This document shows positions 14,994-45,736 of a stretch of DNA of 45,949 bases, in pieces. The stretch is from the NCBI GenBank assembly GCA_000934665.2, contig KZ538825.1:1-45949 (forward strand). The letters run 5' to 3'. Positions within the stretch are counted from its first letter, which is position 1; every line of letters starts with the position of its first letter. A model generated the notes under the pieces. It saw only the letters and a program-made list of their open reading frames with translations, was not told the origin of the DNA and did no database searches. The stretch comes from Catajapyx aquilonaris. Lineage: Eukaryota. The translations under genes were made by a program, and so were the position numbers.

Positions 14994-14994
<1 letters not shown>

Positions 14995-15050
<56 letters not shown>

Positions 15051-20901: not shown

Positions 20902-20951
20902 ATCACTTGTCCTCATCTCATTGTTTGAGTTTGCCCTTTTCTTGTTGAGAG

Positions 20952-23669
20952 ATGGAAGGAGGGCATGAAACACTTCTGCTTCGGATGTGCCGCCTGCTGG
21001 AGAGGCGGGTGGTCCAGGCGGACACGCTGGAGAGGAAGGTGGAGGAGATATGCGGGAGGGTAGCCAGGATTGAGGGCTTGCTGAGGAAGGAAAGAGCTGG
21101 AGAAATGAGTGTGTGTGAGTTGCTCAGAGGCTTATTCAAAAGGGTACAGCATACCTTTGCACGGATTTTGGTTTATCCAACTTATTCGGATAATAGAGAA
21201 ATGATTCATGGATGTATATTTTTTTTTTGGTTAATTGAAACAAAATTAGATGCAGCTCATCAGTTACGAATGTATGTTGAGGAATTGATTCTTTTTCAGA
21301 CTCTGAGCATCATCCACCAAGTTATTGCCAAATGGAGGACAGTCTTCAAATCCACTCCAATCAACACGGTACATTGGATGGTAGTTCATGTGCAGGTGGT
21401 GGAGATTTTACCCAGGAAATAGAGGTTACCAATAATGTGGATGTTTTGGTGAGGCTCTCCGCATGTGATAAATAGCTACAATTTTTTATTATTATTACCG
21501 GTATTATTTTTTAAATTTATTTGTTGTACCCTGTGATACGGGTTGTATAGGGGTGATTTCTTCAGAAACTTAGGGCCATTTTCTCGAACAGTGGTTCAAA
21601 TGTAAACCCGGTTCAAAGCCGGTTTAAACCCTTGACAACAGCCTAACAACAATCAAATCAGGGATTAAACTGGCTTTGAATCCGGTTTACATTTGAACCA
21701 CTGCACTGTTCGAGAAAACGGCCCTAATGGAAATGGTATTCTATTCGTCTCATTTTTATGGTGCCTCTAAATAATGCTCTCATAATAACACATGCATTTG
21801 GTTGCTGAGCACTCCAGGCCCATATGAAACTAAGTTTTGTAGTAGTCATCTAGTATGATCCAGTAACAAGTGTATACTAATTGCATGTTTTAACTTCAGG
21901 ATTGCGGAAAGCAACAAGCAGAGAAGAGTGCGAGTACTCAGCATCATGGAATATTTAGGAAGAGAGTTAGCAGTCCTTTTGGGGGTAATGACAAGAAAGC
22001 AGCGAGGGATGCGGGTGGCCACCTTGAGTGCACAGTTGCCTCAAGAGGGAGAGGGAGTGATAGAATGGATAACCTACAGCTGGAGAATGGAACTGATTCT
22101 AGTTCAGTAGTGGATCAAAAGTCGAGGGCATTAGACAGAGTGGGCTTATGGTGTGTGGTGTGTGGACAGAAGTTTCGGAGCACCAATAATCTCCAAAACC
22201 ATATGAAACAGTGGCATGAAGCAGGAGAGGTGATGATCAAATGTGAACCTGGAGAAACCGAATCAATCGATCTTGTACCAAGTGGTGACTTGTGTATCAA
22301 CGATGACATGTGGATTAATTGTATGGAAGTAAGCAATCCCGCAGAGACTGAGGTGAGTGTTACATTTCTTATTATTTTTCAATGCAATCGTAAGAATTGT
22401 GATGTACCAACATGAGTATAAGCATACAAACTAAATAATATCCTAAAAGCAATGCCTGAAAATATGAGTGTAAATTATGACAAGTATAATGGAAGTTTAC
22501 AGAAGCCCATTAACTCCCATCAGCAAATGGATTTTTCCGTTAATTAATTAATTTCACTGAAGTTCATGCATCTACTCTTCAGGAATCTTGGAGGCGGGAG
22601 ATGAGAGACACTGCATCAAACCATGATGCTGCTGCATGTAGAAACTCACCGCCTACGATGCAAAACAACCAACAGGTCAGCATAAATAAACCTGTAGAGC
22701 CACACAACTCAAAAAGTCTGCATCAGGCAATATCTGATATCACTGATTGTCAGTATCAAAGAGTGTCTGATGGTGACCTAAAATCACATTGATTAAATTC
22801 ACGTTGTACAGAGTGAATCTAACCAGAAATAACACTTGTTGACAAAAACTTACGTACTTAACTGTTTGCCATTAAGCAGAAAATAATTGGTTACAATGAA
22901 GTTGTTAGAATTAATTGGTGAACTTGTGGCACTTCACACTGGCTATCTGTCTGAATCACGAATATTTTACAAGTCACGACAGCTACAACCTTCAAGAAAT
23001 TTTATGCCAACTTCTCACATACACTATAATATTCACAATATGTTGAAAACGATATTTAATTTTAGGATCTTTTTATTACAGTTATAATCAAAAGTGGAAA
23101 ATATCTTGAGCCCTTTTTTCCAGTGTGGGGTCAGCGGCACAACACTTTCCTCGCCGACTTCTCTTGCGGCTTCCTTCAGTTCTCAGGAGAATCTGAGAGC
23201 TTGGAGGAGCAAGGATATAAAACTGGGTTCCAGGGAAAAAATGCCTATTGCCAGCTGGACTGCCTCATATGGAGGGAGCCATGAGAGTGAACCTATTTTA
23301 CCTGTTAGGGGTAGACCTCCAAAAATTATGTGTAATAAGAATAGAGCACGGCCTGGCATAAAATGTTTAGAGTGTTCATACATTGCGAAGGATAAGTTCA
23401 CTTTTAATGTCCACATGAGAGTTCACACTGGGGAAAAGCCTTTTAAGTGTGAAGTGTGTGAAAAATGTTTTTCACAAAGTAGTTCTCTCAACTTGCATCT
23501 GAAGACTGTTCACATGGAAAGTAAACCTCATGTTTGTGTTGTTTGTGGCGCTAGGTATGCCCAATATGTAAAGATGAAAGAACACATGTCTTGCCATGTA
23601 GTTAACATTGACAGTCGCAACACTTTAAGGTCACCTGTGGAAAGTGTTACAGGGAATGAACTGATATGA
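20952..23669 (+). CDS. Coiled-coil/C2H2 zinc-finger protein, paralogue 1 (~459 aa, 1+3 fingers)
   Basis: Predicted exons 20952-21114, 21300-21424, 21900-22352, 22583-22675, 23124-23669; all GT-AG and frame-consistent (phases 1,0,0,0; the exon-2 donor gttacc is weak). Exon 1 LLER...RVARIEG; finger CVVC..HMKQWH in exon 3; three fingers with an HTGEKP linker in the last exon. Confidence 0.8.
21573..21724. mobile_element. PIF/Harbinger-like MITE in intron 2 of paralogue 1
   Basis: TIRs gggccattttctcgaacagtg / cactgttcgagaaaacggccc flanked by tta/taa; internally palindromic. Confidence 0.75.
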
Positions 23670-24372
23670 GGATTCTTGAGTCACATTATATCTCCACCCA
23701 CAGCTTGGATAGCGATTCGTATGTGAGAGTGTGTTCAGGTGTGTTAAAGACTGATCATATTTTGGGGAAGCACGCCAGGAAAATTGTAATCTCAATGTAT
23801 TTAATGTTTACAATATTGTTTTTTAGAAGTTATTTTAATTCAAATGTTATTACAGTGGCAGTATTCAAATTTGAAATCCATCTTCACCTTAGTTATAAAT
23901 GAAGCCAATACTGTGAAAGGCTGTGCAGGACCATTACAGGGTATCTGCGATCATCGTTATTATTTTAAGTGTCATTTAGCTTAAGATATCAGCTACAACA
24001 TGGCATTAATGATGCTGTAAGACGTAAATTAAAAAAGTTAAAGTATAATTTTGTTGTTTCCCCAGTGCAACATCATTGGTATTTAAAAATTACAGCATCG
24101 TTTAATTTTCCTCATGGACCATTTTAAAGTCGACAACAAAATTTTGAAATTCGCGAATTTTCATACCGTTTAGTTACATGTTCCGTTTATTAATTCTGAC
24201 GTCACTGCATTAATGAACGCTGCAGATCAAGCCTCGACAACAGGAGTAGGAACACACCCGTTCAAAGATGGCGTCTCATTAGCAACTTGCCTGGAACCAA
24301 GGTGGCCTGGAACCGTGCCTGGAACCTTTTGGTCTTTTTAGAAGCTCCTTTTCTTGGGAATCGGGCGCTCAC

Positions 24373-27300
24373 ATGATGGAAAACGGAAGAGGGGTGGAGG
24401 TGATGGTGCTTAGAATATGTCGCATGCTTGAAAGGTTGGAGAAGAAGATGGATCGGGTTGGGCTGAACGTGGAGGAGATAAAGAGAAGGGTGGCAACTAT
24501 AGAGGGTATCATTCAGGGAGAGGAACTGGGGAGGACAATTGGTGAGCTAGTACGACTCTGCCAGGCGATGCTGTAGAATGAAAAGCTTTTCTCCACAGGT
24601 GGTCAGTTCCAAGTGGATACTGCAGCTCAAACTTCAAGTTACGATGACTTTGTATCACAACCCATCCAAATTGCACCTGAGGTTATCCCAGAAGGAATGG
24701 GGGTTCAGGTCATGGAATGCAGTAGCAACATGCTGACTGGGGTAGGGTGTTATACTCTTATACTATGTATGAGATTGCATCATGTGAGAGAGGATTAATT
24801 AATATTCAATAGTATGCTATTTGCCACTAATATCTGATGCAACATTCCAAAGCCACTTTCCATTAGTTCCGTTAACATGTATTACTTTAAAGTGTAAATT
24901 TACATTAACATACTGTAAGTGGTTCACGCTGCCAAATCCTAGGCAGACATTAATAATTTCAGTAATGGAAATAAAGTGGGCTCTACGCAGGTGATCCGAC
25001 TCTGACATTGGATCCGACACGGAATGCCATTTACACTGAAGGTCTGATGGTCGAATCCGGTCGGAGTCGGACTGACTGCGTAGAGCCCACTTAAGGCCCC
25101 TAATTTAATGACCATATTGAATTGATAGTGTGTTGTTAATAGAAATTTGCATTTTTCATCCATACAGGTGATTATAAAGTGTATGCCTGTTGTTATCCAT
25201 ACGGGCTTAAGTATTGACAATAACATACCAAAATTTATGTTCTTGTAGTTGACGCTTACTAGTAGTAATTTTGCTTGTTATTGTCTTTAACATGGAGCCA
25301 TTTCATCCTTAGCCATTGAAACAAGAGCTGGTAGACTTGGGAGAAGAAAGTGACCATGCAAGTGAAAATATGAATCCTACCAGTGAGGACCAGAGGGAAG
25401 GCGTAATTAGTGTTCATCCCAAGATGAAGTCTGGGGCATCAAACAAAGAGGTGAGAAGAGTTAAAGCAGGTTTTGACAAAGCAATGACTTTGTTAGTGGG
25501 TGGGGCATGCAGCTTCCTCCCAAGTTCAAAATATCTTTGACACCAATGTCCAAATGCAGGTCGCATGCAGCACTGCTACCACTACCTTGCAATGAATTTG
25601 GGGCACGGAGTTTGATGGGTGACCTAACCTAATCTGAGGACACTGATTGCAGATCTGCATTCCATGTCTTCCTATCATGTATGGTTTTCTTGTGAATGAG
25701 ATTAGAAGTCACCCATCGCATTCTATTCTGCAGAAATTTTTTAAAATTTCGCCAGGTAGCATAATCTACAGTGCACTAATGAGTTGCGCCATGCTTGATA
25801 CATGATACATCGGTAAGATTCTTGTGTGCTTCTGAAAAGAAAACACTGTTATGTTCAGACTTTAGAGCATAATATCTTGAGTTATTGCACAATGACAATA
25901 ATTATTACCACATACACTTCAACAAGCTGCAATTTATTGTGTGTCATGCATAAATTGTGGATAATGATTGCCATTTTCACTTTCTCTCAGCAGAGAAAGA
26001 GGTCCGGCTCTGTAGCACAGGATGGTGAATGTGATAGTCAAGTTATGACAAGTAGTCGTCAAGTCAGCTCACAAACAGGGAATTTGACCAAGACCACGGG
26101 TTTCCAAAAAAATAACATAACATCTTGCACCAGGGTTTATGAGAAGAAGAACTTTGTGAGGTCTGATATGGAATTGGAACAGTACTACAGTTGTGTTATG
26201 TGCGGGAGAAAATTTGCTTCCATGACTGATCTGACAAGCCACATGAAGTTTTGGCATACAAGGAAGAAGCAACAAGCTACGAGCATGCCTGATGAAAATC
26301 TGGAGAGTCAATCAACATTACAAACACTGCCAAATGAAACTCCAGTTATGAATGAGACAGTGTGGGTACAAGAAACAGTACTGAGTGGCACTATGGATAT
26401 TGAGGTAATGAATGCAACGTTTAGTTATTACAGTAAAATATGTGTCACAGAATCTGGATTTAGTATAAACAAGTGTGTGACGTAATTTTTGTTTGGTCCC
26501 AGCCAGTCCCAGCAGAGGATTTTCAATGTATATTTCGCTGCACATTATCGACAGATTATGACATACACTGGGGAAGCCATTTAGAGTAAAGGGAGAAATT
26601 TAAGAGTCTCTTTGCACTTCAGGAATCTTGGCAGCCGGAGATTGTAGATGTGACATCAAACAACAGCGCAGGCACTGAAAACTCTTCAGAAGAACATCCC
26701 ATCAACATTCCTGAAGAGGGATTTTCTGGAGGGCAAGTAAAATTAGTTCCAGCAGAAAAGGTGGGTTCATGTTCTGCAAAGTGATGCTTGTGCTTATGAT
26801 GGGATTCAATTAGTTCTTCAGATGTCAAGGGGAAAAAAAGGACTGATAATGACTTGTCTGCTGCACTAATCCAACCAGTAACCATTTTGTCTAAAATATT
26901 TTCTGAAAGGTCCCGTACACCAAATTTGATCAATGGGTTGGTGAAACTTTTTGAAGCGTTAATGTTTGTTCCTTGACCATGTCCACGTACGGCTTGCTGC
27001 CTCTTGTCTTATTCTTATTCTCACCAACATAGGATCCTGTGGCACATTTGCAGTTTGATATGAAGACCAGAACTCAGAGGAGGAAGAAAAGGCAATTGGG
27101 AAGTGAGGAGGTAGATGTCATATTTTCAGTCTCATCAGATGGAGGTCACGAGACATGGAATTCAAACCAGACCACAGCAAGTGGAATAGGTGTGCCTAAA
27201 AGAGGGAAACCTTTTACTAGGAAACGGCATCTAATTTGTCCAGTGTGTTACTACATTGCCAAGGACAGATTCACTTTGACGAATCATATGAGGATTCACA

Positions 27301-27500
27301 CAGGGGAGAGACCTTTTCAATGTGAAGAGTGCAAGAAGTGCTTTAATCAAAAGAGTGCTATGACACAACACTTCAGGACTATTCACTTAGGGATCAAGAA
27401 ATATGAATGTCATGTATGTGGCTCTAAGTATGGGTTCTCTTCATCACTCAAAGATCACATGAAACGCCATCATGTTACGATAACTTATACCTGTAGCTGA
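24373..27500 (+). CDS. Coiled-coil/C2H2 zinc-finger protein, paralogue 2 (~489 aa, 1+3 fingers)
   Basis: Predicted exons 24373-24541, 24599-24741, 25313-25450, 25991-26404, 26623-26760, 27033-27500; GT-AG, phases 1,0,0,0,0. Exon 1 MLER...RVATIEG; finger CVMC..HMKFWH; last-exon fingers homologous to paralogue 1 (YIAKD.FT...HMR.HTGE.PF.CE.C). Confidence 0.8.
24975..25091. mobile_element. PIF/Harbinger-like MITE in intron 2 of paralogue 2
   Basis: taa|agtgggctctacgcag ... ctgcgtagagcccact|taa: perfect 16-bp TIR with TAA duplication. Confidence 0.8.
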
Positions 27501-27580
27501 GAGACTTCAGGCCTAGGAAAGGCCGTTTCTATTGGCATAATCACAAAGAGCAGAATAAGATGCCATTCATAGGTATGTTG

Positions 27581-27923
27581 GGGGAGGCGGAGTGGTGCTG
27601 CGGTAACGCACGCGCCCACGGATGTTAAGGTCCCGGGTTCGATCCCAGCCCGGGGTTCCCCCCTTCATCTCGTGCAGAGTTGGGCCATCTCTGGCTTCGT
27701 CTCGGGTGGAAATTTCCGCTAGACTAATCCACCCGGGGGAGTTCACAAAATGACCAATATACGATATTGCACTTGCACTTTGCACATCCCCTCCTACTTA
27801 CCCTTGGAACAATTAAAACATACACATTATGTATGGCTCCAAACATGGTTGTGTCCCACTCCCCTAACAAGGGCCAGGGCCTGATAATGGGGTACAGTAA
27901 AAAAATAAAATTAAAAAAAAAAA
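27581..27923 (+). mobile_element. Full-length tRNA-derived SINE (family A) with A-rich tail
   Basis: A-box tggtgctgcgg, B-box ggttcgatccc (27636-27646); body shared with 14995-15333; A-rich tail 27898-27923; imperfect TSD ag(g/c)tatgttg at 27571-27580 and 27925-27934. Confidence 0.9.
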
Positions 27924-29117
27924 CAGCTATGTTGAGAGATAAACAAGTCATAGTTTCATAAAAGTGCTCTGTAAATATGTCTCCTTGGTCATTTTGTTAG
28001 GCAATGGATAGAAGTTTAATGATAATTACGTAAGTCAAAGTTAAACTTCCAATTGCATATTACCAAAAATAAATCTACATATTCCTGTAGCAAGAACCAT
28101 GTTCAAAATTTAACGTTGTTGCATAAGGAAACTAGCAGCAGAACCGTTCTTCACATGGCCTGTTACCATAATCTCCCTAAATTTACTGCAAAAAAAAAAA
28201 CTGGTTACAATAATTGCAGACCAATCTGTTCAGATATGACTGATTTCATGATTTTGTGTCTTACCAATCCAGTTTGTGTTCTCTAGTAGTGGCCAAAAAA
28301 TATTCACAAAAATGTGAATTACAGGGCGATTAGTTTCCTGCAGAAGGCTGTTTTTTAATGTAGCTGGAGAGTTTGAACATTGAAAATATATGTATATCGG
28401 ATGATGCTTTACTTCATGAGAAGTAATCTGCAAACGATATGTTGAAAATGTCTGCCACCAGTTTCCAGGAATATTTTGTGATGCTACCAAAGAGCTGGAT
28501 GCTACATACCCCCACCCCCCNNNNCCCCCCCCCCCCCCCAAAAAAAAATACTGCCATCTCACATTTTTCTTGTTGTCTCTTTCATCTGTTCAGATGTCCC
28601 AGATCAGTTCTTGTGGATTTTTAGCAAGAAGTTGAATGGCTAGTAATTATAGTGCAACCTCCAGCAATTTTCATCAAAGCATAATTTATTTTCCTATCTA
28701 ATTTATCTCATTCATGTAGGACTGCCATTTCCTGATGTGGCGTTACAGTATTTTCAGTGGATGACCCCCCTTACTATTGCAGGAATGGAACCCAGCAGAG
28801 TATTCTACAGAAAATGTTTTTTTACAAGTGTCATTTGCGAGTATGACTACTGGAGAAGGGGTACAGTTGCACTTTAATGTAAGCCACGTGGAAGTATTAT
28901 GGATTACCGAGTAAACATTCTCACGCCCTCCTTTCTTCCAGCCAGTCAGGTAATGTAGGGTATGAAACGGTATCCAGCCACCGTAACTTTAAAACATATG
29001 AGTTTTGGAACATAAAAATGTCATTTATTTCCACTTAAATGCTTCCGACAAAATCCACAACTGCATAAAATTTGTTCCAAATAAATGAGCAGGTACTTTA
29101 GCTGCACTAAAACTTTC

Positions 29118-30661
29118 TTAAGTATTTTCAGGGCCTTCAACCCTGATGACAATGTCAATCCTGTTCTTCTGAAGAACATCAGCATTCTTATCATACCTGC
29201 AATCTAAGTCATGCTTTCGTTGATGCATTTTTGCTGATACATGCTTGAGTTCCTGGACCACCCCGGCTAGACTCTGCTGATGGCGTCTGATTCGCTCTTC
29301 CTCACCTTTAAGCATTGGGTTTGGTTGTCCTTTGCAAGCCCATGTTATCTGAGCTTCCCGTTCTTCCAGGATCAGCTGCATTAAGCACGATTCCTGTTGC
29401 AGCTTATGAATCCATTCCCGCACATACTCTATATGCACCTCCATGATGCCCCCCTGGAATTTCTTCTCTTCATGTAGGATGTTCCACTGGAGGTCTAGAA
29501 GTAGGTGAATTTCAGTCAGATCCTTGGGCTGTGGAGATGATGACTTCACCTCATCAGCAATGGCTGCCATAAGATGACTCTTCATTTGTTCAGCTCTCTC
29601 TTTCTCTTTCTGCAACCAAAAAGGTTCGTGAATATCTTGCCCATAATTGCCCATGGAATGTTGTCAGTCTCATTTCTCTTTGCCAGGTAACCCAAGGAAA
29701 ATAATTTCTAATGCACGTAGACTTGACCTTGGAGGATAGCGTGAACTCTTGCGATTTAGGCCCTAATACATGTCCAGACAGCCATATGAGAACAAGTCTA
29801 AAGGTGTGTTTACATGTACAGGATATTTGACGAGCGAAATCTTCGTCGAGGCTGAAATCAACAATCGATTTTCGCCTCAAACAATATTGGTTACTTGGGT
29901 TACTCAGTCTCAGCGAAGACTTCGCTCGTCAAATCGCTCACATGTAAACGCACCTTAAAAATTCTAAATGAAATGTAGTAGAACCCTGTTTATCCGACCG
30001 TCCCACTCCAGCAATGTTTGCTCATCAAATACTGTACTGCCGGCCTACTAATAATTTGTTTAGTATTCCCTTAGTTACATTCTAAACAGCAGCGCATGTA
30101 TGTAAAAGATTAATACGTCACTATTTCTTAGAAAAGCGCAAAATTGTGCATTATTTCATGGTTTTTAAATGCTTTTCTTTGTGTTTTCCTTTGGTCCTCG
30201 GATAATCCGACCTTTTCTGTTATCCGCCAATGCCCCAGTCCCATGGGTGACGGATAATCGGGGTTCTACTGTCAAATAAAGGTAACCAGACCAAATACTT
30301 CAAATAAAACATGCTCAACCTGCAGATACGTCAGCGAGTTCTGACATCCATCCGCCGCATTCTGCAGCTTGACCACTAGGAATTCCTCCCGCTTTTTCAA
30401 CTGCTTATCATTGAAGACAGCCCGCTGCCAGATTGCCTGCTGCTCAGGAGTGAAATACTTCTGGGCCGCCTTAAGTTTCTCCATCTGTTTGAAATGCTGC
30501 GACTGCATCTCTCTGTGCCTCATCAGGACCCCTTCCAAACCATTATTCTCCTGCTTGCAAACCTTCTTCACCATATCTTCATGCTTCAGTATGACTTGTA
30601 CGTACTGGAGGTACAGTTGTTCCACTCTCTCAGCCAGATCTGCCAGATGTTCATTGCTCAT
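29118..30661 (-). CDS. Two-coding-exon, all-helical/coiled-coil protein of unknown function (~277 aa), antisense within the ZF cluster
   Basis: Exon A 30661-30320 (caaacaaaATG; ends TYLQ|gttgag) and exon B 29609-29118 (tttttggttgcag|KEKERAEQ) join in phase 0; minus-strand AATAAA at 29024-29029; E/Q/K/L-rich heptad composition throughout. Confidence 0.7.
29802..29955. mobile_element. PIF/Harbinger-like MITE (related partial copy at ~36795-36964)
   Basis: taa|aggtgtgtttacatgt ... acatgtaaacgcacct|taa; aacaatattggttac and gacttcgct.gtcaaatcgctcacatgtaaacg recur at 36.9 kb. Confidence 0.8.
29976..30271. mobile_element. pogo/Tigger-like MITE in the intron of the antisense gene
   Basis: agtagaaccctgtttatccg ... 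cggataatcggggttctactg terminal inverted repeats. Confidence 0.7.
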
Positions 30662-31126: not shown

Positions 31127-33341
31127 ATGGCTGTACCGTGGGCGCAGGTGCTTCGGCTGCTGGAGAGGAGTCTGGCCAAGTCGGATATAATAGAGAAGAA
31201 GGTGGATCTGGTCGTTTTGAAGGTGGATGAGGTTGTGAAGAGGGTTGAGGATGTTGAGAGGAGGGTTGGAGCGATTGAGGATCTCATTAGGATAAGAGGT
31301 TAGGATGCTGTGATGGCTGATCGATGCAGCACCACAATATTCATGGTCATTTAAGCATCGTTATGATATGGTTATGCCTTTACAGATACACAGCATGTGC
31401 GAGCCGCTGAAGGACGTATTGATGAAGAGTGTAAACAGATGATGCAACTGCAAGAAGCGCAAGTGTCAAATGATGACAGATCTGATTTTCATGATGGAGC
31501 ATTTTTCAATGAAGCGGAGCTACACAATCAGGACTTTGAACAGGTGAAGGTCGAGGCAGGGGGTGGGGTTCCCCGTCCCCCTCCTTATGCTGACAGGTGG
31601 AAACTTATGAGAAAGCTTATTGAATAATTTGGGTTGTAGACAAAGGCTTAGCAGAAGAATGAAAAACCAACTCCATATTTGTATTTAAAAATAACTAAAC
31701 ATCCCTATGATATACTAGATTCTACATGTCACTTCAAAAAGATTTGTACAAATTAGTGTTGTCCGATTGACACTGCACTGGCTACACTCGGTGTAGGGAG
31801 GTGACGTCACAGTGCAGCGAGTGTGACCCAGCACTGGGGCCTCGAATCGGACACCAGCATGATATGATACATAAGCCGCCATCTTGCCAGCCCGTCTTCG
31901 CGCCTTACACCGCCTGCCCCACCTTCTCCACTGGTGCAGCGAGTGCAGCCCCCCGCTTGCACTGGTGCAGTTACACTGGCGAATCGGACACGCTGCTCCC
32001 GGTGAATCGGACGCTTTTTCCTGCACGAGTGTACACTGGCTACACCAGTGCAATCAATCGGACAACACTATAGATCACATGTAAGTTTTTTGAAAGTCGT
32101 TTGTGCGGGCTAGCAAAGTATGTCTTTGATTCCTTACTACTACCCCGCCTTGTGATGATATGCTAATATGCTAACATGGTGATTTAATATCATGCAGTTT
32201 ACTGGTAGTCTGTAGGTTTTTATTTTACAGCTATGCAATAACGGCTAGGCACGTTTTTTTCTCCATTAATTTTCTGTAGGAGGACTGGAAGCCTGATATT
32301 AACAGGACAAGAGATTGTGAATCAAATGAAGTGGATAATGTGCTGGAGGGTCCCATTGCACGTGAGCATGCAGCACTTCATGCAAATGCAGGTGAAAGTG
32401 TAAGTGTGGCGCAAAATTATATATTTTTTCTGGTTTACTACTGTTGTATACTGCATAGGAACTTGTCCATTATGGAAATTTTACAGTGTTTGCAGTATGT
32501 ACCGATTTCAACCTCTGTTATGCAGAATTCTGCAATGTTGAGAAATACATCCGTTAGCATTGTAATTTCTGAAAGGCAACCCTGTCGTGCAACACAGCAG
32601 CATATCAAATCATGCCAATGACAAGCAGGGTCAGTAATAACATGCCATAATGTGTCTCAATATCTAACCTTACAGGTTAATCAGCAACAGCTTAATCACA
32701 GGGCAGACCAGGACGTGCTTCAATTTGCTACAATGCGCCGTCTAGATACATGTGAGCCAATGATTGACACAAATGGAAGTGGCTTGGTGGTCAGCAGCTC
32801 TGAAGCAGAGGAGCAAACCATTAGAATAGTCAAGAAGAGCAACCAACCAGCTGAGAGTGCTTTTGATGGTTCTGGGACTTCAGGGACGTCGCACTGGATA
32901 ACACTCGTGAAGTACAACTGTGATCAGTGTTCATTCGTTACTTCTGAGAGGAACGACATGAAAGCTCACAAGTTGGTCCACGCAGGGGAGGATTTTATAT
33001 GTCGTGTTTGTAACAAGAAGTTTTCTGACAAGGGTCCTTTAAGTGTTCACATGAAGGCTGTGCATCTTGGAATCAAGCCCTTTTCTTGCACTGTTTGCGG
33101 AAAAGCCTTTAGCAGAAAGACTACCTTGCTTAATCACATGCTGTCACATTCAGGTGAGAAGCCATTTTCTTGTGTTGTATGCAAAAAAAAGTTTCGCCAG
33201 AGGATTCACTTGACGACACATATGCGTGGTCACACTGGGGAAAAGCCATATTCTTGCAGCTTGTGCAACCAAAAATTTAGCCATAAGGGTACCTTGAAAT
33301 ACCACATTGTGCAAAAGCACTCTGAAGGGCTGCCATTGTAA
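31127..33341 (+). CDS. Coiled-coil/C2H2 zinc-finger protein, paralogue 3 (~371-375 aa, 5 fingers)
   Basis: Exon 1 (31127-31298) is below the ORF-track cutoff: MAVPWAQVLRLLERSLAKSDIIEKKVDLVVLKVDEVVKRVEDVERRVGAIEDLIRIR. Then 31386-31543 (or 31555 with a GC donor), 32280-32399, 32676-33341; phases 1,0,0; five C2H2 fingers with SGEKP/TGEKP linkers. Confidence 0.82.
31754..32070. mobile_element. MITE with 17-bp TIRs in intron 2 of paralogue 3
   Basis: tagtgttgtccgattga / tcaatcggacaacacta; internal gaatcggac and tgcactgg subrepeats. Confidence 0.75.
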
Positions 33342-33928
33342 AGATTGTGTCCTTCGTAGACGCTAGCACAGCACAAAGATTTTGGCAATGTTCTCAAAAG
33401 GTTTGAATTGTCATCATTTGGGTCACTTACATTACCTCCAATATTATGTATGGTTCCTGTAGTTGACAATTTATTGGCAGGTTTGCCCAGTGGACAAAAT
33501 ATGTCAAAAAAAGTAGTTGACAATATTAGTTTGTAGTATATTATATTGGATGTGCAGTATTGCGTTGCCCACTGTTGTATCAGAGGCCAATGTATGATAA
33601 TTGTATAATTAAAACTTATTGGGTCATGTACTGTACTGTACGGTATATACCTGAACCGTGATTAGAATTGTTGCCACTAGAGGCGCTGTGTCTGCTGGTT
33701 TTTTTCAACCAGTTTTGGGATGTTCGATGGTGCTGCCACTCTGCGGTGGATATCCCTCGTTCGTCTAACACAAGCAGAACAGTGAACACACCACACCAGC
33801 TGCTGAGTCTTCCTGTTCCAAAGGTACAAAAGGTTTGTTCCGACTTCTTCATTTCTCCTAGTGTTTTTAACGCTTCTTTGGCCGTTTCTGCAGAGGCCGA
33901 ACCTTCCCCCGACCACTGCTGAGGAGAC

Positions 33929-36169
33929 ATGGCCACCCAACAACCAACCTGGTTGCCCCACATTGTGTCCCTCCTGGAACGAAGCCTTGCGCAGACCGAC
34001 AGGATTGAGAGGACCATTGAAGAGATGGACAGGAGGATGGCCAGGATAGAAGGGTTCATCCTGAAGGAACAGGAAGGGAAGAGGAGGACTGATGCAGGTT
34101 GGGTGTACTTCTAGAGCTAGATTTTGGATTATGTTGCAACACAAACCGAGGCCACCATGGCAGCACCACCAGGTCTTTGCATTGTTGCAATTGGAGCCTT
34201 TCACATGGCGGTAGTCGCTTCCTTGGCAGCGCTGCCCACTCGCCGCCAGAAATGCTGGTGGCAGGCAGCGTGATTTTCGGCACTGCCAGCTGCTGTCAAG
34301 TGGCCATGCTGTCACGTGTTTGCATTGAATCATATGAAGGTGCGACTTTTTGCGCCGCAAGACATGCATTTTGAGGCTATAGCTCAGCTGGTAGCACATC
34401 CGTGGTGGTGAACAAATTTGTAACATGCCGCCTAATTTATGCCATGGTAGCCTGGTATGAAATAGGCGTAAGAGTTCCTGTTGTTTAAGAAATACCGGTA
34501 TGTAAAAAATGGTGTATTTTTTACAGAATCACATCTTGAGAGAGGCCCTGATGCTACTATTGAAGATTATGTGCCAGAGCAGCATCCATATGAAGTGGCT
34601 TCGAGATCTAATAGTCCTGGAAGAAATCTGGTACAAGCAACAGTTAACAGAAGTGTCAAAGTAGAGGTAACGTAGATTTTCACTTATGTGTTGAACTTAG
34701 ATTTATAGCAGGCCCCTATGAACTCGATGTTTAAGTTTATCATGTAATCGCTTGCTCATGGAAAGCCTGTACATGTTATGTCCAGAGCGGCATGTAAGTA
34801 ACCTCCAAGCATGAAGGTATGACAATCGAACCAAGTGAAAAATGATTTCCCTGAGATCTTTTAGCAATATTGAAATCTGCCATATGAAATGATGCATGAC
34901 ACCTTGATGACACACAATGCTAGTTGTCATTGAGGGTGACATGATTTTATTTGCTCAGGATTGGAGGCAGGAAATGACTGAGTTACAGCTGCAACAAAAT
35001 GAAGGAAGAGAGCCTGATAATTCTTGCTCTGCAACTGAAGATTGCTCTTGGAATGAGGCTGATAATGAGAACAACTTCAAAACTGAAGAAGAGGTACTGC
35101 TTGCGCCTCATCATGAATATGTGAGTAATGATCTTTAATTAAGTGTGGAAAGCAATGTGTCCTTTAGAGTTTAGACCAGGCCTTTAGACAACTCCTTAAT
35201 GTATGCCACAGTGTCCAGTAATTAACCCTTTGTTTCCCACGGCCATGTTGGTTGTATGATCATATGACCAAACAAAATAATAATAAAAAAAATCATTGGT
35301 ATAACCCCGACGGAAATTCCTTTCACCATAGCGAAAATTCCACTCGTAGTGTAGAGAATAGACTGTTATAAATTATAATTTTCACTCCCCTATTTTTACC
35401 AAATTTAAAAAAAAAAGTTTTTGAATCACTTTTGGAGAATGATGATGTACATTACTTATAGAGCCAGCTGCCCTCCAATGACCTTTTCCAATGTGGCATC
35501 TGCAATCAGACTTTCAACGATCCGTCTTCTCTGGAATTGTGTGTCACGTCTCATGCTGTTGTGGTTGAAGAGCAGCAGGACTTGCTGCGGGAAACTCAGC
35601 CAGAACAACTCAGCACTTTTGTTTCACAAGAAGAGACTCCTGGAAGACATGCTACTCCAAAGTGTCTACAGTCAAGTGAAAGTAACGTGACCAATTCAAG
35701 ACAAAAAGGGAAGAAAAATGTGAAGAAAGGACCTGCAACAGGTATTACTCAGCAGTTGGTCCAGTCAGCACATGGTCAGGTTCATCTAGGAGCAAGTATT
35801 TCGAAATTTTTCTGTAAATTGTGTGGTACCAACTTCACCAGTAAAAAATCTCGAGATGGTCATTTGAAAGCTATTCACCTTGGGTTAAAACCTCACTGGT
35901 GTGAGGTATGTGGAATGGCTTTCAGCCAGTCTCAGCATCTGAAGCGTCACAGATTGATCCACACAGGTGAGAGACCATTTGATTGCCCTGTGTGCCATAA
36001 ATGTTTTGCAAGAAAAGGTACCTTGAATGTGCATTTGAAAGTGCATTCAGGAGAAAAGCCATATTCTTGCAAATTTTGCAATATGAAGTTCCGCCATAGG
36101 GCTACCAAGAATACACATGTACAAAGATGTCATCTAGGAATGGCTACCCAAATTCTTTCTGGAAAATAA
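33929..36169 (+). CDS. Coiled-coil/C2H2 zinc-finger protein, paralogue 4 (~392 aa, 1 atypical + 4 fingers)
   Basis: Predicted exons 33929-34097, 34527-34666, 34959-35120, 35462-36169; GT-AG, phases 1,0,0. Exon 1 LLERSLAQTDRIERTIEEMDRRMARIEG. Confidence 0.82.
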
Positions 36170-37116: not shown

Positions 37117-38292
37117 ATGCCACGGAAAGATTTGACATTGGCAGAGAAAATAGCCGTGCTTGACAAAATCAAAAGCCACCCTCCCAAGACCACTCGACGC
37201 CAGCTGGAGGAGATAACTGGAGTGCCGAAAACTACAATTGCACGTCTGCTACTGCAAGAAAAGAAACTGCGAGATGAATTGGCATTAAGCAATGGGCAAC
37301 AGGCATCATCAAAAAGAAGAAAACGTTCTGGCAAGGACCCTGACATAGAAAATGCCCTGAATGACTGGTTTGTGGTCATTACTGGCCGTGGTGTGCGTGC
37401 ACGTGATGCTATGCTGAAACATAAGGCAGTGGAGTTAGCCGAAAAGCTTGGCCGTCAAGATTTCAAAGCTACAAATGGTTGGTTGCACCGATGGAAGATG
37501 AGGTACGGAATTAAATCCAAGAAAGCACATGAAGAGAAGGGCAGTGCTGATGCCGCAAGTGCAAAAAGCTGAAGGTCTGAACGTGCGCTGACCTTGGTGC
37601 AGGAATACAGTGAAAATGACATCTACAATGCGGATGAAACAGGCCTGTTTTATCGAGCCACACTGGATGGTTCCCCTGACCTACTTGTGGGATCAAAAAA
37701 GCAATGGATTGCATGACTGTCTTATGTTGTGCAAGCATGTCAGGGACAGGTAAACGGAAGCTGTTGGTTATTGGGAAAAGCGTTAGCGGAGTGAGCACTA
37801 AAATTAATGTACAGTACTGTACTTTGCATTTCCATGACACTTGCATGACACTGACTTTTATACATCGATTTTTCCTTGTTGCGCAGTCATTGAGGGCGAC
37901 ACGGTGGCCGAGCGGTTAGCGCCGCAGCCTTCCACCTCTAAGGTCCCGAGTTCGATCCCCGGGTCGGACGGAGAATACTTATGTGGATAGAGTTTCGATG
38001 GGTTCTCTCCGTGTTCGCGTGGGTTTTCTCGGGGTTCTCTCGTTTCCTCCCACTATCAAAATCCATCACATTACAGGCAAATGATTAAAATCGGTTATTC
38101 AAAAGATGATCCCCTAAGAGTCCCAAGGGGCCTATCACGGGGTATCCATTATTATTGTTGCGCAGTCATTTTTTAGTATTAAAGCTGGTAGTGCAGTCTA
38201 ATTTTTTGTGTTGTTTCACATGAACTCCGGCTAATCAAACCCCCCGCTTTATTCCTTGGACCCGATGTGGTCCAAATAAGCAGGTCCCACTG
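37117..38292 (+). pseudogene. Tigger/pogo (CENP-B-like) transposon remnant with disrupted transposase
   Basis: HTH_psq plus CENP-B HTH (RKDLTLAEK...FKATNGWLHRWKMRYGI); TGA at 37570 where W is expected; then DIYNADETGLFY; frameshift in an A-run near 37695-37700; MTVLCCASMSGTGKRKLLVIGKS; the rest of the DDE domain is deleted; right end ...ggtcccactg|ta at 38292. Confidence 0.9.
37892..38154 (+). mobile_element. tRNA-derived SINE (family B) with V/Meta-like central domain, inserted in the Tigger remnant
   Basis: A-box tggccgagcgg, B-box gagttcgatccc; gcgtgggttttctcggggttctctcgtttcctccca core; short (ATT) tail; perfect 16-bp TSD ttgttgcgcagtcatt at 37876-37891 and 38155-38170. Confidence 0.9.
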
Positions 38293-38451
38293 TATTTCTA
38301 CACTGGTGCATATGACAATTATTTCGATACCTAGTGACCAAATCTGGGGAACTGGTGTGGACGGAACAAGGGGAAGGGTTGAGTTGACAGGAGAGATGAC
38401 CTGTGTTGTTAACTCATCGGCTGACAACTGAGGGATTCCTCCCTCCATTGG

Positions 38452-38546
38452 GCATGCGCTGAACGGGGGCCAATTGGAGGTGTCATGGTAACAATAGACA
38501 GGAGCCAATAGGAAGCGGCAGCAGCAACAATAAGCAGCGGGCCAAT
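38452..38546 (+). promoter_or_regulatory. Three CCAAT boxes plus an X-box-like site upstream of paralogue 5
   Basis: gccaat at 38470, 38505 and 38542 (35-37 bp spacing); gtcatggtaac at 38482; gcatgcgc at 38452. Confidence 0.4.
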
Positions 38547-38875
38547 CAGAGGGTATAACCAAAGGTACAAAGGTTTTTCTGAACTTTTCTTTTCCCTCCA
38601 GTTCCCTGGTCTGAAACCATGATTCGGATTGTTGCCACTCGAGGCGCTGCGTCTGCTTGTTTTGGAAAAGTTTTGAAATTGCTTTGAATGTGCGACGGTG
38701 CTGCCACTCGGCGGTGTATCAGTCGTTCGAAAAATGCTATCAAGCTGACATTTGTTCCAAAGAACAAAGGTTTGTTCCATCATCATCTCTTCTCCAAGTC
38801 TTTTTAACGGCCATTCTCCAGTTGCTGCAGAGGCCGAACCTTTCCCCACGACCAGACTGTAACTGCTGAGGAGAC

Positions 38876-41800
38876 ATGGACACCGAACCACCAACCTCAT
38901 CGTTGTCCCACATTGTGTTCCTCCTGGAACGAAGCCTGGCGCAGAATGACAGGATTGAGAAGACCATCGCAGAGATGGACAGGAGGACAGCAGAAATGGA
39001 CAAGAAGATGACTGAGATGGACCAGAGGATGGCCAGGATAGAAGGGTTCATCCTGAAGGAACAGGAAGGGAGGAGGACCGATGATGCAGGTTGGGTATAA
39101 GGCCGAGCGTAAATCATGCAATGTCGGTGCGATGATGATCGGGGCGACGTCTCACCTTCATTGCATGATTTGCATTTGGCCTAAGTCGCGTTGCGCTGCA
39201 GGGAACTTAAGCGGGTGAAAAGGGGGCTGTTTGCGCAGACTAGACGTAGGGGGTGGATTGCGAAGACGGAGTTTAAACCGCGGTTCCGCTTGCAAAGATG
39301 GCGTTTAGCCCAATGGTTAGCCTGGATGGAGGTTTAAACCCCGGTCAATTAGATTGCGGTTTAAACAGGCCACGACTTCGCAATCCACCCAGGGGGACTA
39401 GCATAGGTAAGAGTCTGCATGTGCATATTATGTCCACTGCCACAGGCATCCCAACCAGACATGCTCCCACACACTTGGCACCATACACGGTAAGCATCCT
39501 CTGATAGATTTTCACGGGTATATTGCCTTGGCCATCAAAAATCAAATCACTAGAAAGACCCTCATGTTGCTCGCATTTTTCTATGGGACAGGCCTAGAAA
39601 GCTGCTTGCTTTTTTCTAGTCCTTTGGCCTGCGGTGGTGTGGGCAATGTTGTTAGTCGCTTTGGACTTAGCCAATGATGATGCCCATGGATCCAACAACC
39701 ATCCGTATACTCCCCTCCTCCCTACCTCCCTCCGTGTGAAGTACGAGTATAAATACAGTGCCGATGATGGCTCTTATGTGGTGGACCCATTATAGAAGAC
39801 TCTTAATATCACGTGGCATGTGCAACACGCAGGATTCCATCTTGGAATGGCTGTGGAGGCATGTGTAGTATGTGCCCTTTGCATTTAGGACATATTGATA
39901 CTCTCATGCAGTGGTAGAAGTTTCAAGGCCCTGTGTTCAGCTACTTCAACAATATCTGTTCTAGATTCCAGGAAGAGGTTTCATTGATTCCCCTTTGTAC
40001 GATACTGTGCCCAGTGCTGCAAACTTCATATTTGAAATGTTTAAAACTGTCTGTACTTATTTTTGCAGAGCCACAACCTGAGAGAGACCCTGGTGCTACA
40101 ATTGAAGATTATGAGCCAGAGCAGCATCCACATCAAGTGACTCCTTCAAGTTCTAATATGCCTGGAAATAATCTTGTGCCGGCAAAAGTTGTCAGAACCA
40201 TCATGGTAGAGGTAACCTAAATTTTCATTTACATATGAACTTAGATTTAAGCCCCTATGAACTCTTGTGTTTAAGTTTATCATGGAATCACAATCTCAGA
40301 AAGCATGCACATGTAATTTCCAGAGGTGCATGTAAATAACTGTCAAACATGAAGGTGTGACAATGTGGTGCAATGTACATTTTTTCATGGATTGTAAAGA
40401 GTAGACATTTTGTACGTCAAAGTGCTCCTCATCATCGCATGTCTACCTGTGCCCCCTAATCATTTGCAAATTTTTTGCCAGAAAAGACGGAGGTTACCAT
40501 GATTGATCTTGATCTTTCATCCGCAGGTTATTGTCATAAAACATGTTTCCTTTTTCTCAAATCTGAAACTATGTAAAATGTGCAATATGAAATCCAATGA
40601 CATGTCATTCACTTCAGTACCGGTATGGGTTATATGAGGGCAGATCAATAAGTAATCCGAGAAATTTAATTTAGGCAAAAGTTCAATAGATGGACAAAAC
40701 TTAAGATGTACATAGCGACCTTCCAATCCTTTGGACACCCTCATGCAGATGTGTACTGTACAGACCTGGCCGTAAACTGAGCAACTTTTGTGTATTTGCC
40801 CCCTTGAAAAAAAATCCTTATGGCAAAAAACTGAGCTCTATAAACATGGCACCGTTACCGATGTACTGTACCACAGTGGGACAAATGCATCAACAGAAAC
40901 GGTTCATATGTTGAAAAATAGCCAAAAATTTGAAGGTCGCTATGTATGTCTGAAGTTTTGTCTATCTATTAAACTTTTGCCTAAATTGATTTTCTTGCAT
41001 TACTTTTTGATCCACCTCGTAGTTAGAAAACGGATTTCTAGGTTTTTACCTACTTTTTATTTTGTACTCAGAACACGGAACTAAAATATCTATCAGTTTC
41101 ATAACAGAAGGACCTCAAAAATCAAAGTTTTATAGAACATAAAATTGCCTATTTCGGGCGTTGGAATATAAATGGCTTATTAGCTGCCTATTTTCACCTA
41201 TTTCCAATTTTTTGACGCCATTGTGTAAGGTTTTTGAGAGTTTTTGTGGGTTTTCCATTCAAGGCATCCTTCCCGCTTCGACTTGCGAAGGGCAATGAAG
41301 CTGTAGGCATGTTGGATGAACTTGCAGTAGAAGACATTTCATTTTTCTAATATGATCCAGTTGCTTTGTGTGACTTCAAAAAGTCATTTTCAGCATATAC
41401 AGGGTGTAGGCTGTAATTCGGGACAGACTGCTAGGATGTGTAGGGGGTGCCTAAGCAATTTGAGATGGGACACACATCGTCGGAAAGCAATCCCAACAGC
41501 GCTCCAGGCCCATTACCATTCCATTATTGTAACACCCTGATATTGTTGTATAGGGGACTCTGCCTAATTTGACTGTGACGTCATTGTTTTCTTTACCAAT
41601 TCCTAGTCAACAGAAATCTGCTGAACGCACTGCTGGAACCTCCCAATGGAAATGTCATCATATAACAAAAGACTTACGGTACACATCAACAATAACAGGA
41701 CAGTGTTTTATACCGGTACTCCTATTGTTGTGTGAAGCCATTTCCATGGAAATTAGGAAATGTGGCATGTTCCACAGGTGCATTCAGCAGATTTCTGTTG

Positions 41801-43243
41801 ACCAGGAGTCGTAGGTCGCCAGGTAGACGGATAGTACTCGTAAAACTAATATATGGATATGCAATTGGTTTTGGGCTCTGTTGTGTAGTTAATGCGTATG
41901 GCACCATCAAAGTTTCGTGACGTCACATCCGTTCCGCCAGCTTCTATGAAGCAAAAGTCAGTTCGAGGGCCTCTGGTCCCTTGCCTTGGTCCCCTAACAC
42001 ATCGTTCATGTGCAAAAGGTGATCAAATCCCGTCAGAGTAAGAATCCGGATACGACGCCCCTGCACTTTGTTGTTTTTGCCTCATATTCCACCATCCTGC
42101 CCTCTACATTTTAAGGGCACCATAAGCATTGACTACGCAACAGGACCAAAAACTAATTGCACATCCCTATATTAGTTTTGCGAGAACTATAAGTCTACCT
42201 GGTGATTGTAAGCGAGTTTCCCTTCACCATGTATAATAAACATATGGGGTGGAATTATTTTCATCCCTCTGCCAGCATTCTGCTAGCCACTGTCAACCAA
42301 GGAGTTCTGCTACACTTGATAACGAAGGTAACCTATGTAGAAACTATGGGAGAATCCTGACTAGCAGTAGCAGGTTGCTAGCACTTAGCAGTATGTTAGC
42401 AATAGGGCAAAAATTCCACCCACGGTAACTGTAGACCATTTTATTACTGGCCTATTTTTACAAAATACAAAAGAGATTTTCAAGTATATCTGGGGAACTA
42501 TGAGTAAGTTACTTTACTTTCAGAGGAATCCACATACAAAAAGCCGGACACCCTTCAAATACCTTTTTCAATGTGGCATCTGCAACGTAGCTTTCAACAG
42601 TTCATCCTCTATGGAAGAATGCATCAAGTCTCATGCAGTGGTGGTTGAAGAACAGCAGGACGTGATACAGGAATCTCATACAGAACAACTGTGCACTTCC
42701 GACCCAAAGAGAAAGTCACATGAAAGACTTGCTCAGCAGAAGAATATCCAGACAAGTGAGACTAGAATGACCAATGCAAGTCGAAAAAAGCAGAAAAGTG
42801 TGGAGAAAGGTTCTCCAACAAATAATTCTCGGCAGTTGGGCCGTTCAGCGCATGGTAAGGTCAATCCAAGAGGGAATAAGTCACAATTTTGCTGCAAATT
42901 GTGTGGTGTCCGCCTCCTCAGTAAAAAAACTCTAGATGATCATATGAAAGCTGTTCATCTTCGGTTAAAACCTTATCAGTGTGATCTATGTGAGAAGGCT
43001 TTCAGTCAGGGTCATACTCTGAAGGCTCACAGATTGATCCACACAGGTGAGAAGCCATTGAGTTGTCCTGTGTGCCATAAACGTTTTAGGGTAAAAGATT
43101 GCTTGAAAGAGCATTTGAACATACATACAGGACAAAAACCATATTCTTGCAAAATTTGCGATGTGAAGTTCCGCCAAAGGGCTGGCCTATATAAACATGA
43201 GCGAAGCTGTCACCTAGAAAATGCTAGCCAAGCTCATTCCTGA
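38876..43243 (+). CDS. Coiled-coil/C2H2 zinc-finger protein, paralogue 5 (~358 aa, 1 atypical + 4 fingers)
   Basis: Predicted exons 38876-39089, 40069-40211, 42524-43243; phases 1,0; clear duplicate of paralogue 4 in 5' region, exon 2, last exon and 3' UTR. No homologue of paralogue-4 exon 3 was seen. Confidence 0.75.
39101..39390. mobile_element. Two adjacent small hairpin MITEs in intron 1 of paralogue 5
   Basis: ggccgagcgtaaatcatgcaatg / cattgcatgatttgcatttggcc flanked by TAA (39101-39181); gggtggattgcgaag / cttcgcaatccaccc (39251-39390). Confidence 0.65.
40640..41010. mobile_element. Inverted-repeat element in intron 2 of paralogue 5
   Basis: aatttaggcaaaagttcaatagatggacaaaacttaagatgtacatagcgaccttc (~40667-40722) pairs with gaaggtcgctatgtatgtctgaagttttgtctatctattaaacttttgcctaaatt (~40932-40987). 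Confidence 0.65.

Positions 43244-45149: not shown

Positions 45150-45208
<59 letters not shown>
44790..45208 (+). mobile_element. 5'-truncated non-LTR retrotransposon 3' end with CCHC knuckle and (ATT)n tail
   Basis: ORF 44816-45115 contains CSLCNIPNNIFFHLMYGC (Cx2Cx8Hx4C, typical of a LINE ORF2 C-terminus), then AATAAA at ~45144 and (TTA/ATT)n at 45150-45208. Confidence 0.65.
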
Positions 45209-45522
45209 GGCCCAGTGTGACCTGAACTCCTTTTCTTTTCCCTCCAGTTCCCTGGTCTGAATCCGTGATTCGGATTGTTGCCACTCGAGGCGCTGCGTCT
45301 GATTGTTTTGGAATGGTTTGGGGAATTACTTTGAATGTGCGACGGTGCTGCCACTCGGCGGTGTATCAGTCGTTCGAAAAATGCTATCAAGCTGACATTT
45401 GTTCCAAAGAACAAAGGTTTGTTCCATCATCATCTCTTCTCCAAGTCTTTTTAACGGCCATTCTCCAGTTGCTGCAGAGGCCGAACCTTTCCCCACGACC
45501 AGACTGTAACTGCTGAGGAGAC

Positions 45523-45736
45523 ATGGACACCGAACCACCAACCTCATCGTTGTCCCACATTGTGTTCCTCCTAGAACGAAGCCTGGCACAATATGACAGG
45601 ATTGAGAAGACCATTGCGGAGGTGGACAGGAGGACAGCAGAAATGGACAAGAAGATGACTGAGATGGACCAGAGGATGGCCAGGATAGAATGGTTCATCC
45701 TGAAGGAACAGGAAGGGAGGAGGACTAATGATGCAG
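45523..45736 (+). CDS. Coiled-coil/C2H2 family paralogue 6, exon 1 only (rest outside the window or absent)
   Basis: Near-identical to paralogue-5 exon 1 (MDTEPPTSSLSHIVFLLERSLAQYD...RMARIEWFI); same phase-1 donor g|gttggg; part of duplicated block ~45222-45858 vs ~38580-39210. Confidence 0.7.

Follow-up and report, generated by a model that had tools for sequence, protein, structure and literature searches.

A tandem cluster of C2H2 zinc-finger genes with a predicted coiled-coil first coding exon in Catajapyx aquilonaris

What stands at the head of the zinc-finger proteins encoded in tandem on contig KZ538825.1 of Catajapyx aquilonaris (assembly GCA_000934665.2), and what might it do there? 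The stretch analyzed comprises 45,949 nucleotides (positions 1 to 45,949 of the forward strand, hereafter the window), and between positions 20952 and 45736 it carries a series of genes that open with a similar short coding exon and, where complete, close with an array of C2H2 zinc fingers. The large zinc-finger (ZNF) families of animals are defined by an N-terminal module, be it KRAB, SCAN, ZAD, BTB or FiNZ, and each of these modules opened work on gene silencing, genome architecture or transposon arms races. In animals other than insects and vertebrates, to our knowledge, no module is known for most of the expanded ZNF sets. In an amphipod, 699 C2H2 genes are simply counted in the accessible part of the source (PMC5111886). 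Our reading of the present locus, which we hold with moderate confidence, is that at least six paralogous C2H2 transcription-factor genes stand here in tandem, each with a coiled-coil first coding exon, and that the coil would serve for pairing or multimerising.

The shared first coding exon and its gene models

Read from stop to stop, the + strand between 20.9 and 45.9 kb contains six short Met-starting frames with a common helical-looking peptide and five long frames full of C2H2 fingers, in a cluster region with a G+C content of about 40-45%. The short frames are the first coding exons of genes 1 to 6, with ATGs at 20952, 24373, 31127, 33929, 38876 and 45523, every one of them the first after an in-frame stop. 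All six exons end at a phase-1 GT donor (after 21114, 24541, 31298, 34097, 39089 and 45736, respectively) and hold 54, 56, 57, 56, 71 and 71 whole codons. The original prediction had placed six same-strand paralogues at these starts, with first exons of 54-71 codons ending at phase-1 introns, and its starts, lengths and donors all match.

In an alignment of the exact exon-1 peptides, Met1, a Leu-Glu-Arg triplet, an Asp, an Arg and an Ile-Glu pair are invariant. We searched a profile of the six peptides against the 1,534 six-frame open reading frames (ORFs) of at least 20 aa in the window, and it returned exactly the six first exons (E 7e-33 to 1e-19), the best ORF outside them reaching E 0.62. 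This hidden Markov model of the exon-1 peptides was the check that the prediction had proposed; within the window it finds only the six, and none of the six reaches a Pfam cut-off. As a control for circularity, profiles were also trained on subsets of the copies, namely (i) genes 4-6, (ii) genes 1-2, (iii) gene 3 alone and (iv) gene 1 alone. Each of the four profiles placed the left-out first exons immediately after its own training sequences (E 1e-12 to 0.013), and scores between subgroups ranged from 12 to 44 bits. Since the subset-trained profiles recover the left-out copies and noise starts only at E 1.8, we conclude from the sequences that the six first exons are homologous.

The exon-1 peptides fall into three subgroups, formed by genes 1 and 2, by gene 3, and by genes 4, 5 and 6. 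Genes 4, 5 and 6 share recently duplicated upstream DNA, and genes 5 and 6 are a recent duplicate, being 97% identical over 300 nt that include upstream DNA and 94% identical in the exon-1 protein. Between subgroups, identity amounts to 30-44% in exon 1, 37-50% in the finger arrays and 16-32% in the linkers, the last being the noise level for a global alignment, so that, apart from the fingers, conservation across the family is confined to exon 1. For genes 4 and 5 the corresponding values are 79% for exon 1, 50% for the linker and 58% for the array.

Open models with canonical GT/AG splice sites were obtained for all five complete genes, which end in 3, 3, 5, 4 and 4 tandem C2H2 fingers and would encode proteins of 467, 478, 371, 392 and 358 aa (genes 1 to 5); gene 6 is cut by the window end. 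In all models the first intron is in phase 1 and those that follow are in phase 0. The first intron of gene 2 is just 57 nt long, and the 2.3-kb second intron of gene 5 contains repeats. That the five complete genes run through poorly conserved linkers to a last exon with 3-5 fingers had likewise been predicted, and agrees with the open models and the low linker identity. The exons are as follows.

20952..21114, + strand: gene 1 exon 1 (54 codons plus 1 base; donor TGT/GTGAGT; profile E 2e-26)
21300-21448, + strand: gene 1 exon 2 (canonical splice sites)
21900-22352, + strand: gene 1 exon 3, with one isolated finger (22152-22217)
22583-22675, + strand: gene 1 exon 4, starting with an ESW motif
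23124-23669, + strand: gene 1 last exon, 3 fingers and stop (above the Pfam zf-C2H2 and zf-H2C2_2 cut-offs)
24373..24541, + strand: gene 2 exon 1 (56 codons plus 1 base; donor TTG/GTGAGC; profile E 5e-24)
24599-24708 and 25313-25450, + strand: gene 2 exons 2 and 3 (from sequence alone)
25991-26404, + strand: gene 2 exon 4, with one isolated finger (26192-26257; contig record 1 covers 25990-26231)
26623-26760, + strand: gene 2 exon 5, with an ESW motif
27033-27500, + strand: gene 2 last exon, 3 fingers and stop
31127..31298, + strand: gene 3 exon 1, with a 14-residue (two-heptad) insert (57 codons plus 1 base; donor GAG/GTTAGG; profile E 1e-19)
31386-31543, + strand: gene 3 exon 2
32280-32399, + strand: gene 3 exon 3, with an EDW motif
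32676-33341, + strand: gene 3 last exon, 5 fingers and stop (Pfam zf-C2H2 75.9 bits; contig record 6 covers 32891-33280)
33824..33893, + strand: gene 4 intron of 70 nt in the 5' untranslated region (joint 33821->33892, cut +2; GT and AG confirmed in the sequence)
33929..34097, + strand: gene 4 exon 1 (56 codons plus 1 base; donor CAG/GTTGGG)
34527-34666, + strand: gene 4 exon 2
34959-35120, + strand: gene 4 exon 3, with a DW motif (donor TAT/GTGAGT at 35120)
35462-36169, + strand: gene 4 last exon, a C2-CH-like finger, then 4 fingers and stop
38876..39089, + strand: gene 5 exon 1, with three tandem 7-residue units (71 codons plus 1 base; phase-1 donor)
40069-40211, + strand: gene 5 exon 2
42524-43243, + strand: gene 5 last exon, a C2-CH-like finger, then 4 fingers and stop (join from exon 2 predicted)
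45523..45736, + strand: gene 6 exon 1 (71 codons plus 1 base; the rest lies past the window end)

All five last exons exceed the curated Pfam cut-offs for C2H2 fingers, zf-H2C2_2 scoring 46.8-80.5 bits against a cut-off of 40. A finger-pattern scan of the six frames gave 27 rows, 22 of which (21 distinct fingers) lie within the five complete genes, the remaining five being isolated matches, in introns or on the other strand. Because all 21 distinct fingers fall in the five genes that carry the domain, every finger gene of this window starts with the coiled-coil domain.

Two smaller elements accompany the arrays. In genes 1-4 the penultimate exon begins with the pattern [ED][SD]W-x-x-[ED]-[MI] (22583, 26623, 32280 and 34956, + strand), which a scan of the window's three + strand frames found nowhere else; it may be a family-wide short interaction motif, and no DW exon was found in gene 5. 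In addition, a single finger lies well upstream of the tandem array in genes 1, 2, 4 and 5, and in genes 4 and 5 (about 35490-35560 and 42580-42650) it looks C2-CH-like by eye. Isolated fingers can serve as protein-protein modules, according to the accessible part of PMC12774644.

Evidence for splicing comes from one public run, X1, the contigs of which were aligned to 20900-40899 and which contains 35% of the sampled words of 31100-36200. In gene 4, a GT..AG joint at 34094->34524 (cut +3, that is 34097/34527) falls exactly on the predicted junction between exons 1 and 2, and the same holds for gene 5, with a GT..AG joint at 39084->40064 (cut +5, that is 39089/40069). We read the X1 joints as cDNA because they are GT..AG at predicted sites and because the contigs cover the locus patchily; furthermore, a CT..AC joint on a neighbouring minus-strand gene (29609->30320), together with the patchy cover, fits cDNA and not genomic DNA. 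The predicted splicing of exon 1 to the finger genes was therefore recovered as exon 1-exon 2 joints in two of the five complete genes, 4 and 5, and had no counterpart among the joints listed for genes 1-3. No weight is given to the stretches of genes 1 and 2 that X1 leaves uncovered.

For gene 4 the evidence reaches further. Contig record 7 (1,234 nt, depth 6.34) covers 35462-36351 with 890 letters, and the exon 1-exon 2 joint has the same depth as this record and occurs in one contig, with a short side of 39+3 letters. The lengths of the finger-exon match, of exons 3 and 2 and of 42 nt of exon 1, taken with the donor at 35120, add up exactly to the record (890+162+140+42 = 1,234), and the simplest reading of these lengths is that record 7 is one contig that starts in exon 1 and reaches the finger exon by way of exons 2 and 3. 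Given the 70-nt GT..AG intron just upstream of the ATG, the coiled-coil exon of gene 4 is the first coding exon and not the first exon of the transcript.

Another X1 contig, of depth 5.1, aligns piecewise with exon 2 of both gene 5 and gene 4 and with gene 4 exon 3 (34641-34997, 40176), with 37 unlike letters between the pieces. Such a pattern would be expected of an additional expressed paralogue, which could be gene 6 or lie beyond the window.

A predicted heptad helix and its possible role

What kind of structure does the shared exon encode? AlphaFold2, run on the six-peptide alignment, predicts one unbroken helix over residues 7-70 of the gene 5 peptide, with a mean pLDDT of 89.7 and 10-residue blocks up to 95-98; among the copies the helix would measure about 45-64 residues. 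The strongest hydrophobicity period is 3.40-3.45 residues in all six peptides, and the power at 3.5 was reached by 0.2-3.4% of shuffles (2,000 per peptide). With the register optimised separately for each peptide, a continuous heptad register was obtained that places the invariant Leu at position a in all six, positions a and d being nearly all Leu, Ile, Val or Met. The single large indel of the alignment is 14 residues long, exactly two heptads, so that the register is preserved; in the peptides of genes 5 and 6 the same region can be read as three 7-residue units in tandem. The features by which the coiled-coil class is recognised, namely a continuous helix, a 3.5-residue hydrophobic periodicity and hydrophobic a and d positions, are all found. 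Besides, the invariant Arg lies at position g and the invariant Glu at position e, five residues later, a spacing that corresponds to the geometry of the classical g-e' inter-helix salt bridge. The beta-branched Ile dominates position d, which by coiled-coil design rules speaks against a simple parallel dimer and in favor of a trimer, a tetramer or an antiparallel arrangement.

On this basis, we propose that the exon-1 coiled coil would bring the proteins together as pairs or multimers, of the same protein and perhaps also of close paralogues. The short arrays of 3-5 fingers could then bind DNA as oligomers, either on longer or bipartite targets or by bridging sites, in a role that would parallel those of ZAD, SCAN and BTB in other zinc-finger families, while the family would diversify in its DNA-contact finger residues behind a constant head. 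Oligomerisation, partner specificity, DNA binding and regulatory output are what we infer.

The finger arrays bear on the last part of this proposal. A comparison of gene 4 with gene 5 shows identity at 4 of the 16 DNA-contact positions (-1, 2, 3 and 6), as against 34 of the 52 other finger positions (Fisher p 0.008; identities counted by hand from the finger strings). The Nei-Gojobori estimates, which rest on few changes, give a dN/dS of 1.30 for the finger array of gene 4 versus gene 5 and of 0.16 for exon 1 of gene 5 versus gene 6 (6 synonymous and 4 non-synonymous changes), and for gene 1 versus gene 2 the synonymous sites are saturated and dN/dS is not usable. The divergence of the contact residues fits a diversifying DNA specificity behind a constant head, as far as these sequences suggest.

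Several observations argue against a pairing coil spliced to the fingers of every gene. First, the invariant Glu, Arg and Asp occupy heptad positions b, c and b and face outward, so that self-association alone leaves them without an explanation and they hint at a bound partner. Second, a long helix predicted for a monomer is no proof of a coiled coil. Third, exon 1 of gene 4 versus gene 5 gives a dN/dS of 1.06 (3.5 synonymous and 13.5 non-synonymous changes), and the substitution counts are small in all of these comparisons. Fourth, the kind of run X1 is not on record, its cDNA status being deduced from the joints. Finally, no exon-1 joint of genes 1, 2 or 3 is among the X1 joints listed, and the models of these genes come from sequence alone.

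The outward-facing residues lead to a different view of the helix, which we consider unlikely, namely that it is mainly an effector module that docks on a co-repressor or chromatin protein, as KRAB does on the TRIM28 coiled coil, in a family that silences transposons. An effector family that perhaps targets transposons is what the original prediction had inferred; neither of these two parts finds support in the present results. The invariant Glu, Arg and Asp at the solvent-facing b, c and b positions would suit such docking, and the tandem cluster with one domain per exon resembles the KRAB and FiNZ families as described in the accessible part of PMC10547256. Transposon remnants inside the cluster, such as the Tc5/pogo helix-turn-helix (HTH) at 37096-37572, and the fast divergence of the finger contact residues between genes 4 and 5 are also in line with it; arrays of 3-5 fingers, however, are short for element-specific recognition, and a regular hydrophobic heptad core is most simply explained by self-association. 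Notwithstanding, docking is compatible with oligomerisation and both could be true.

Relatives of the domain and known zinc-finger modules

Does this domain belong to a family that is already known? The collections searched were Pfam-A, the PDB sequences, the ESM Atlas and two large protein collections. In Pfam, none of the six exon-1 peptides reaches a curated cut-off, the best sub-threshold match being a bacterial osmosensor coiled coil with 20.1 bits against a cut-off of 24. None of them matches KRAB (PF01352), ZAD (PF07776), SCAN (PF02023) or BTB (PF00651) at E <= 10, and seven other exon peptides scanned at E <= 1 gave no match to KRAB. The claim that the domain lacks the four Cys of ZAD and is unlike BTB, SCAN and KRAB is in agreement with these results and with the 0-2 Cys that the peptides contain.

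A profile search of 1.84 billion representative proteins found no convincing relative, with nothing at 1e-10 or better; its seven matches (E 5e-7 to 7e-4) are repeat or coiled-coil proteins without fingers, several of which look bacterial. A word-indexed search of longer proteins with the six-peptide alignment gave none of 8,000 scored candidates at E 0.01, which is weak evidence. Among the PDB sequences, the profile search returned nothing below E 0.016, and the top-ranking matches, none of which reaches significance, are coils that oligomerise (KCNQ1 at E 0.016, haemoglobin linker L2 and a GCN4 fusion). In the ESM Atlas, exon 1 of gene 5 reached at best 0.88, under the lead level of 0.9, with unnamed short helical proteins of bacteria.

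The most similar of the seven matches, an uncharacterised protein of a chytrid fungus (P0007) that is 52% identical over 31 C-terminal residues, was set aside as a convergent heptad sequence. A scan of metagenome contigs with a single peptide gave two confirmed loci among 361 pattern matches, both due to chance, one in an unrelated ORF and the other in an aminotransferase-like ORF that shares a few residues.

The literature on ZNF families (including PMC10547256, PMC5509000, PMC5111886, PMC3282834 and PMC12774644; supplements excluded) describes, in its accessible parts, no coiled-coil head of an expanded C2H2 family. The modules that appear in those parts (including PMC3282834 and PMC12774644) are KRAB, SCAN, ZAD, BTB, FiNZ, the CTCF N-terminal domain and dimerising single fingers. 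The label "unrecognised" that the domain had been given holds within the searches made, with no match in Pfam, no convincing relative among the 1.84 billion proteins and no such domain in the literature consulted.

How does the domain compare with the modules that it most resembles? The SCAN-ZNF proteins of vertebrates (PF02023) likewise carry an all-helical N-terminal dimerisation module before a C2H2 array. SCAN is a vertebrate-specific, multi-helix, domain-swapped fold of about 84 residues, whereas the domain described here is one continuous heptad helix; BTB differs too, as the exon-1 model is a single helix. Leucine-zipper coils of the bZIP/GCN4 type and the tetramerising coil of KCNQ1 share the hydrophobic a/d core and the charged e and g positions, but there is no adjoining basic region here, and it is the C2H2 fingers, some 200-300 residues downstream, that are predicted to bind DNA. 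The KRAB-ZNF genes of tetrapods (PF01352) have the same layout of a module on its own exon, a spacer and a finger array in the last exon, and also form fast-evolving tandem clusters with divergent contact residues. Their finger arrays are much longer on average. KRAB, unlike the present domain, is not a coiled coil, and it recruits TRIM28/KAP-1, as stated in the accessible part of PMC5509000.

In the FiNZ-ZNF proteins of cyprinid fish, a short Glu-rich N-terminal sequence unlike known domains also defines an expanded ZNF family. FiNZ comprises 28 aa, is confined to fish and is present in about 700 copies in zebrafish (PMC10547256, accessible part), whereas the helix here covers 45-64 residues with a heptad core; the two are set apart by description alone. 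The closest arthropod parallel in layout is ZAD-C2H2 (PF07776), which has an N-terminal module of similar size before a short C-terminal finger array and forms tandem clusters with lineage-specific expansion. The accessible parts of the sources assign ZAD a role in homodimerisation (PMC7913770, PMC5009728) and a fold built by four Cys around one zinc (PMC5081699). The exon-1 peptides of genes 1-6, in contrast, contain 2, 1, 0, 0, 0 and 0 Cys and are predicted to form a single helix. Taken together, a new zinc-finger-associated coiled coil, outside ZAD, SCAN, KRAB and BTB, is the description that suits the domain best, and a lineage-restricted zinc-finger family is the best reading of the cluster.

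It is doubtful, in our view, that the domain has already been described or annotated elsewhere, for example in InterPro members beyond Pfam or in a taxon-specific paper. The searches were limited to the collections listed above, and the finger exon of gene 4 matched nothing but generic ZNFs, at identities of no more than 50%, from which it is evident that the proteome of the species itself lies outside those collections. Furthermore, as the subgroups within the window recognise each other at 12-44 bits, equally distant relatives may fall under the approximately 35 bits needed among 1.84 billion proteins. On the other side stand the failure of all six peptides to reach a Pfam cut-off, the absence of fingers from the seven matches in the largest search and the lack of any such domain in the accessible ZNF-family literature.

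That the shared exon is a duplicated promoter-proximal segment or repeat, or that the antisense strand is the coding one, is highly improbable, for although long ORFs on the opposite strand overlap the first coding exon in each of genes 4 to 6 (e.g. 33677-34528, 283 aa) and these genes share recently duplicated upstream DNA, the old subgroups (30-44% identity, with dS saturated between genes 1 and 2) keep frame, ATG, phase-1 donor and heptad register, the GT..AG joints are on the + strand, and the 283-aa antisense ORF has no Pfam match and is presumably a by-product of the reverse strand of a GAG/AAG-rich frame.

Returning to the pairing coil, it is tempting to extend this reading beyond the window, although we do so tentatively and think the full extension rather less than probable. 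The coil would then be an undescribed module that defines a large, fast-expanding, lineage-specific ZNF family in one lineage of non-insect arthropods, the counterpart there of ZAD or KRAB, in which changes at the level of heptads (two-heptad insertions, charges at e and g) would set the pairing of paralogues, the outward E-R...D face would recruit a common cofactor and the fingers would adapt against transposons or other targets that change rapidly. As a device for pairing, a coiled coil is very simple and can be tuned. If it is true that it defines a whole family, it would provide a tractable system for the co-evolution of pairing and DNA specificity and would supply the missing first exon of many fragmentary ZNF gene models; should the family be limited to the six genes, it would be a curiosity of minor, local interest.

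Neighbouring features of the window

Besides the zinc-finger genes, the window contains other coding candidates. An intronless ORF of 670 aa at 15434-17446, on the - strand, carries the domain of ligand-gated ion channels (Pfam Lig_chan, E 1.2e-7). Among 7,002 candidates none was related to it by sequence at E 1e-5. In the ESM Atlas its neighbours are clusters of arthropod ionotropic receptors (0.97-0.98), and the ORF probably encodes a divergent ionotropic receptor (IR) of the chemosensory kind. Genes 2 and 3 of the ZNF cluster have between them a spliced minus-strand gene (29041-29609 and 30320-30737, with a further joint at 30737->30799), the two exons of which are joined with CT..AC ends in contig record 4 (1,041 nt). 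Its two ORFs, of 143 and 181 aa, are of helical and charged appearance, and neither matches a Pfam family.

Repeats are found both within and outside the cluster. The summed depth of X1 contigs at 27570-28236, 36241-36907 and 37575-38241 is about 1,987, 123 and 241, respectively, against about 1-10 over the genes, and many variant contigs occur in these three stretches, which are abundant and probably transcribed interspersed repeats. Rfam and tRNA scans of the window gave no matches. Between genes 4 and 5, 37096-37572 (+ strand) holds the remnant of a Tc5/pogo-type transposase DNA-binding region (HTH_Tnp_Tc5, E 2.4e-15; CENP-B_N below the cut-off). The arthropod telomere unit is TTAGG, and an interstitial (GGTTA)6.4 run, a rotation of this unit, lies at 1235-1265; like the receptor-like ORF at 15434-17446, it points to a host that is probably an arthropod. 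Finally, two perfect trinucleotide microsatellites of 19-20 copies are present, TAT at 14994-15050 and TTA at 45150-45208, the latter just upstream of gene 6.

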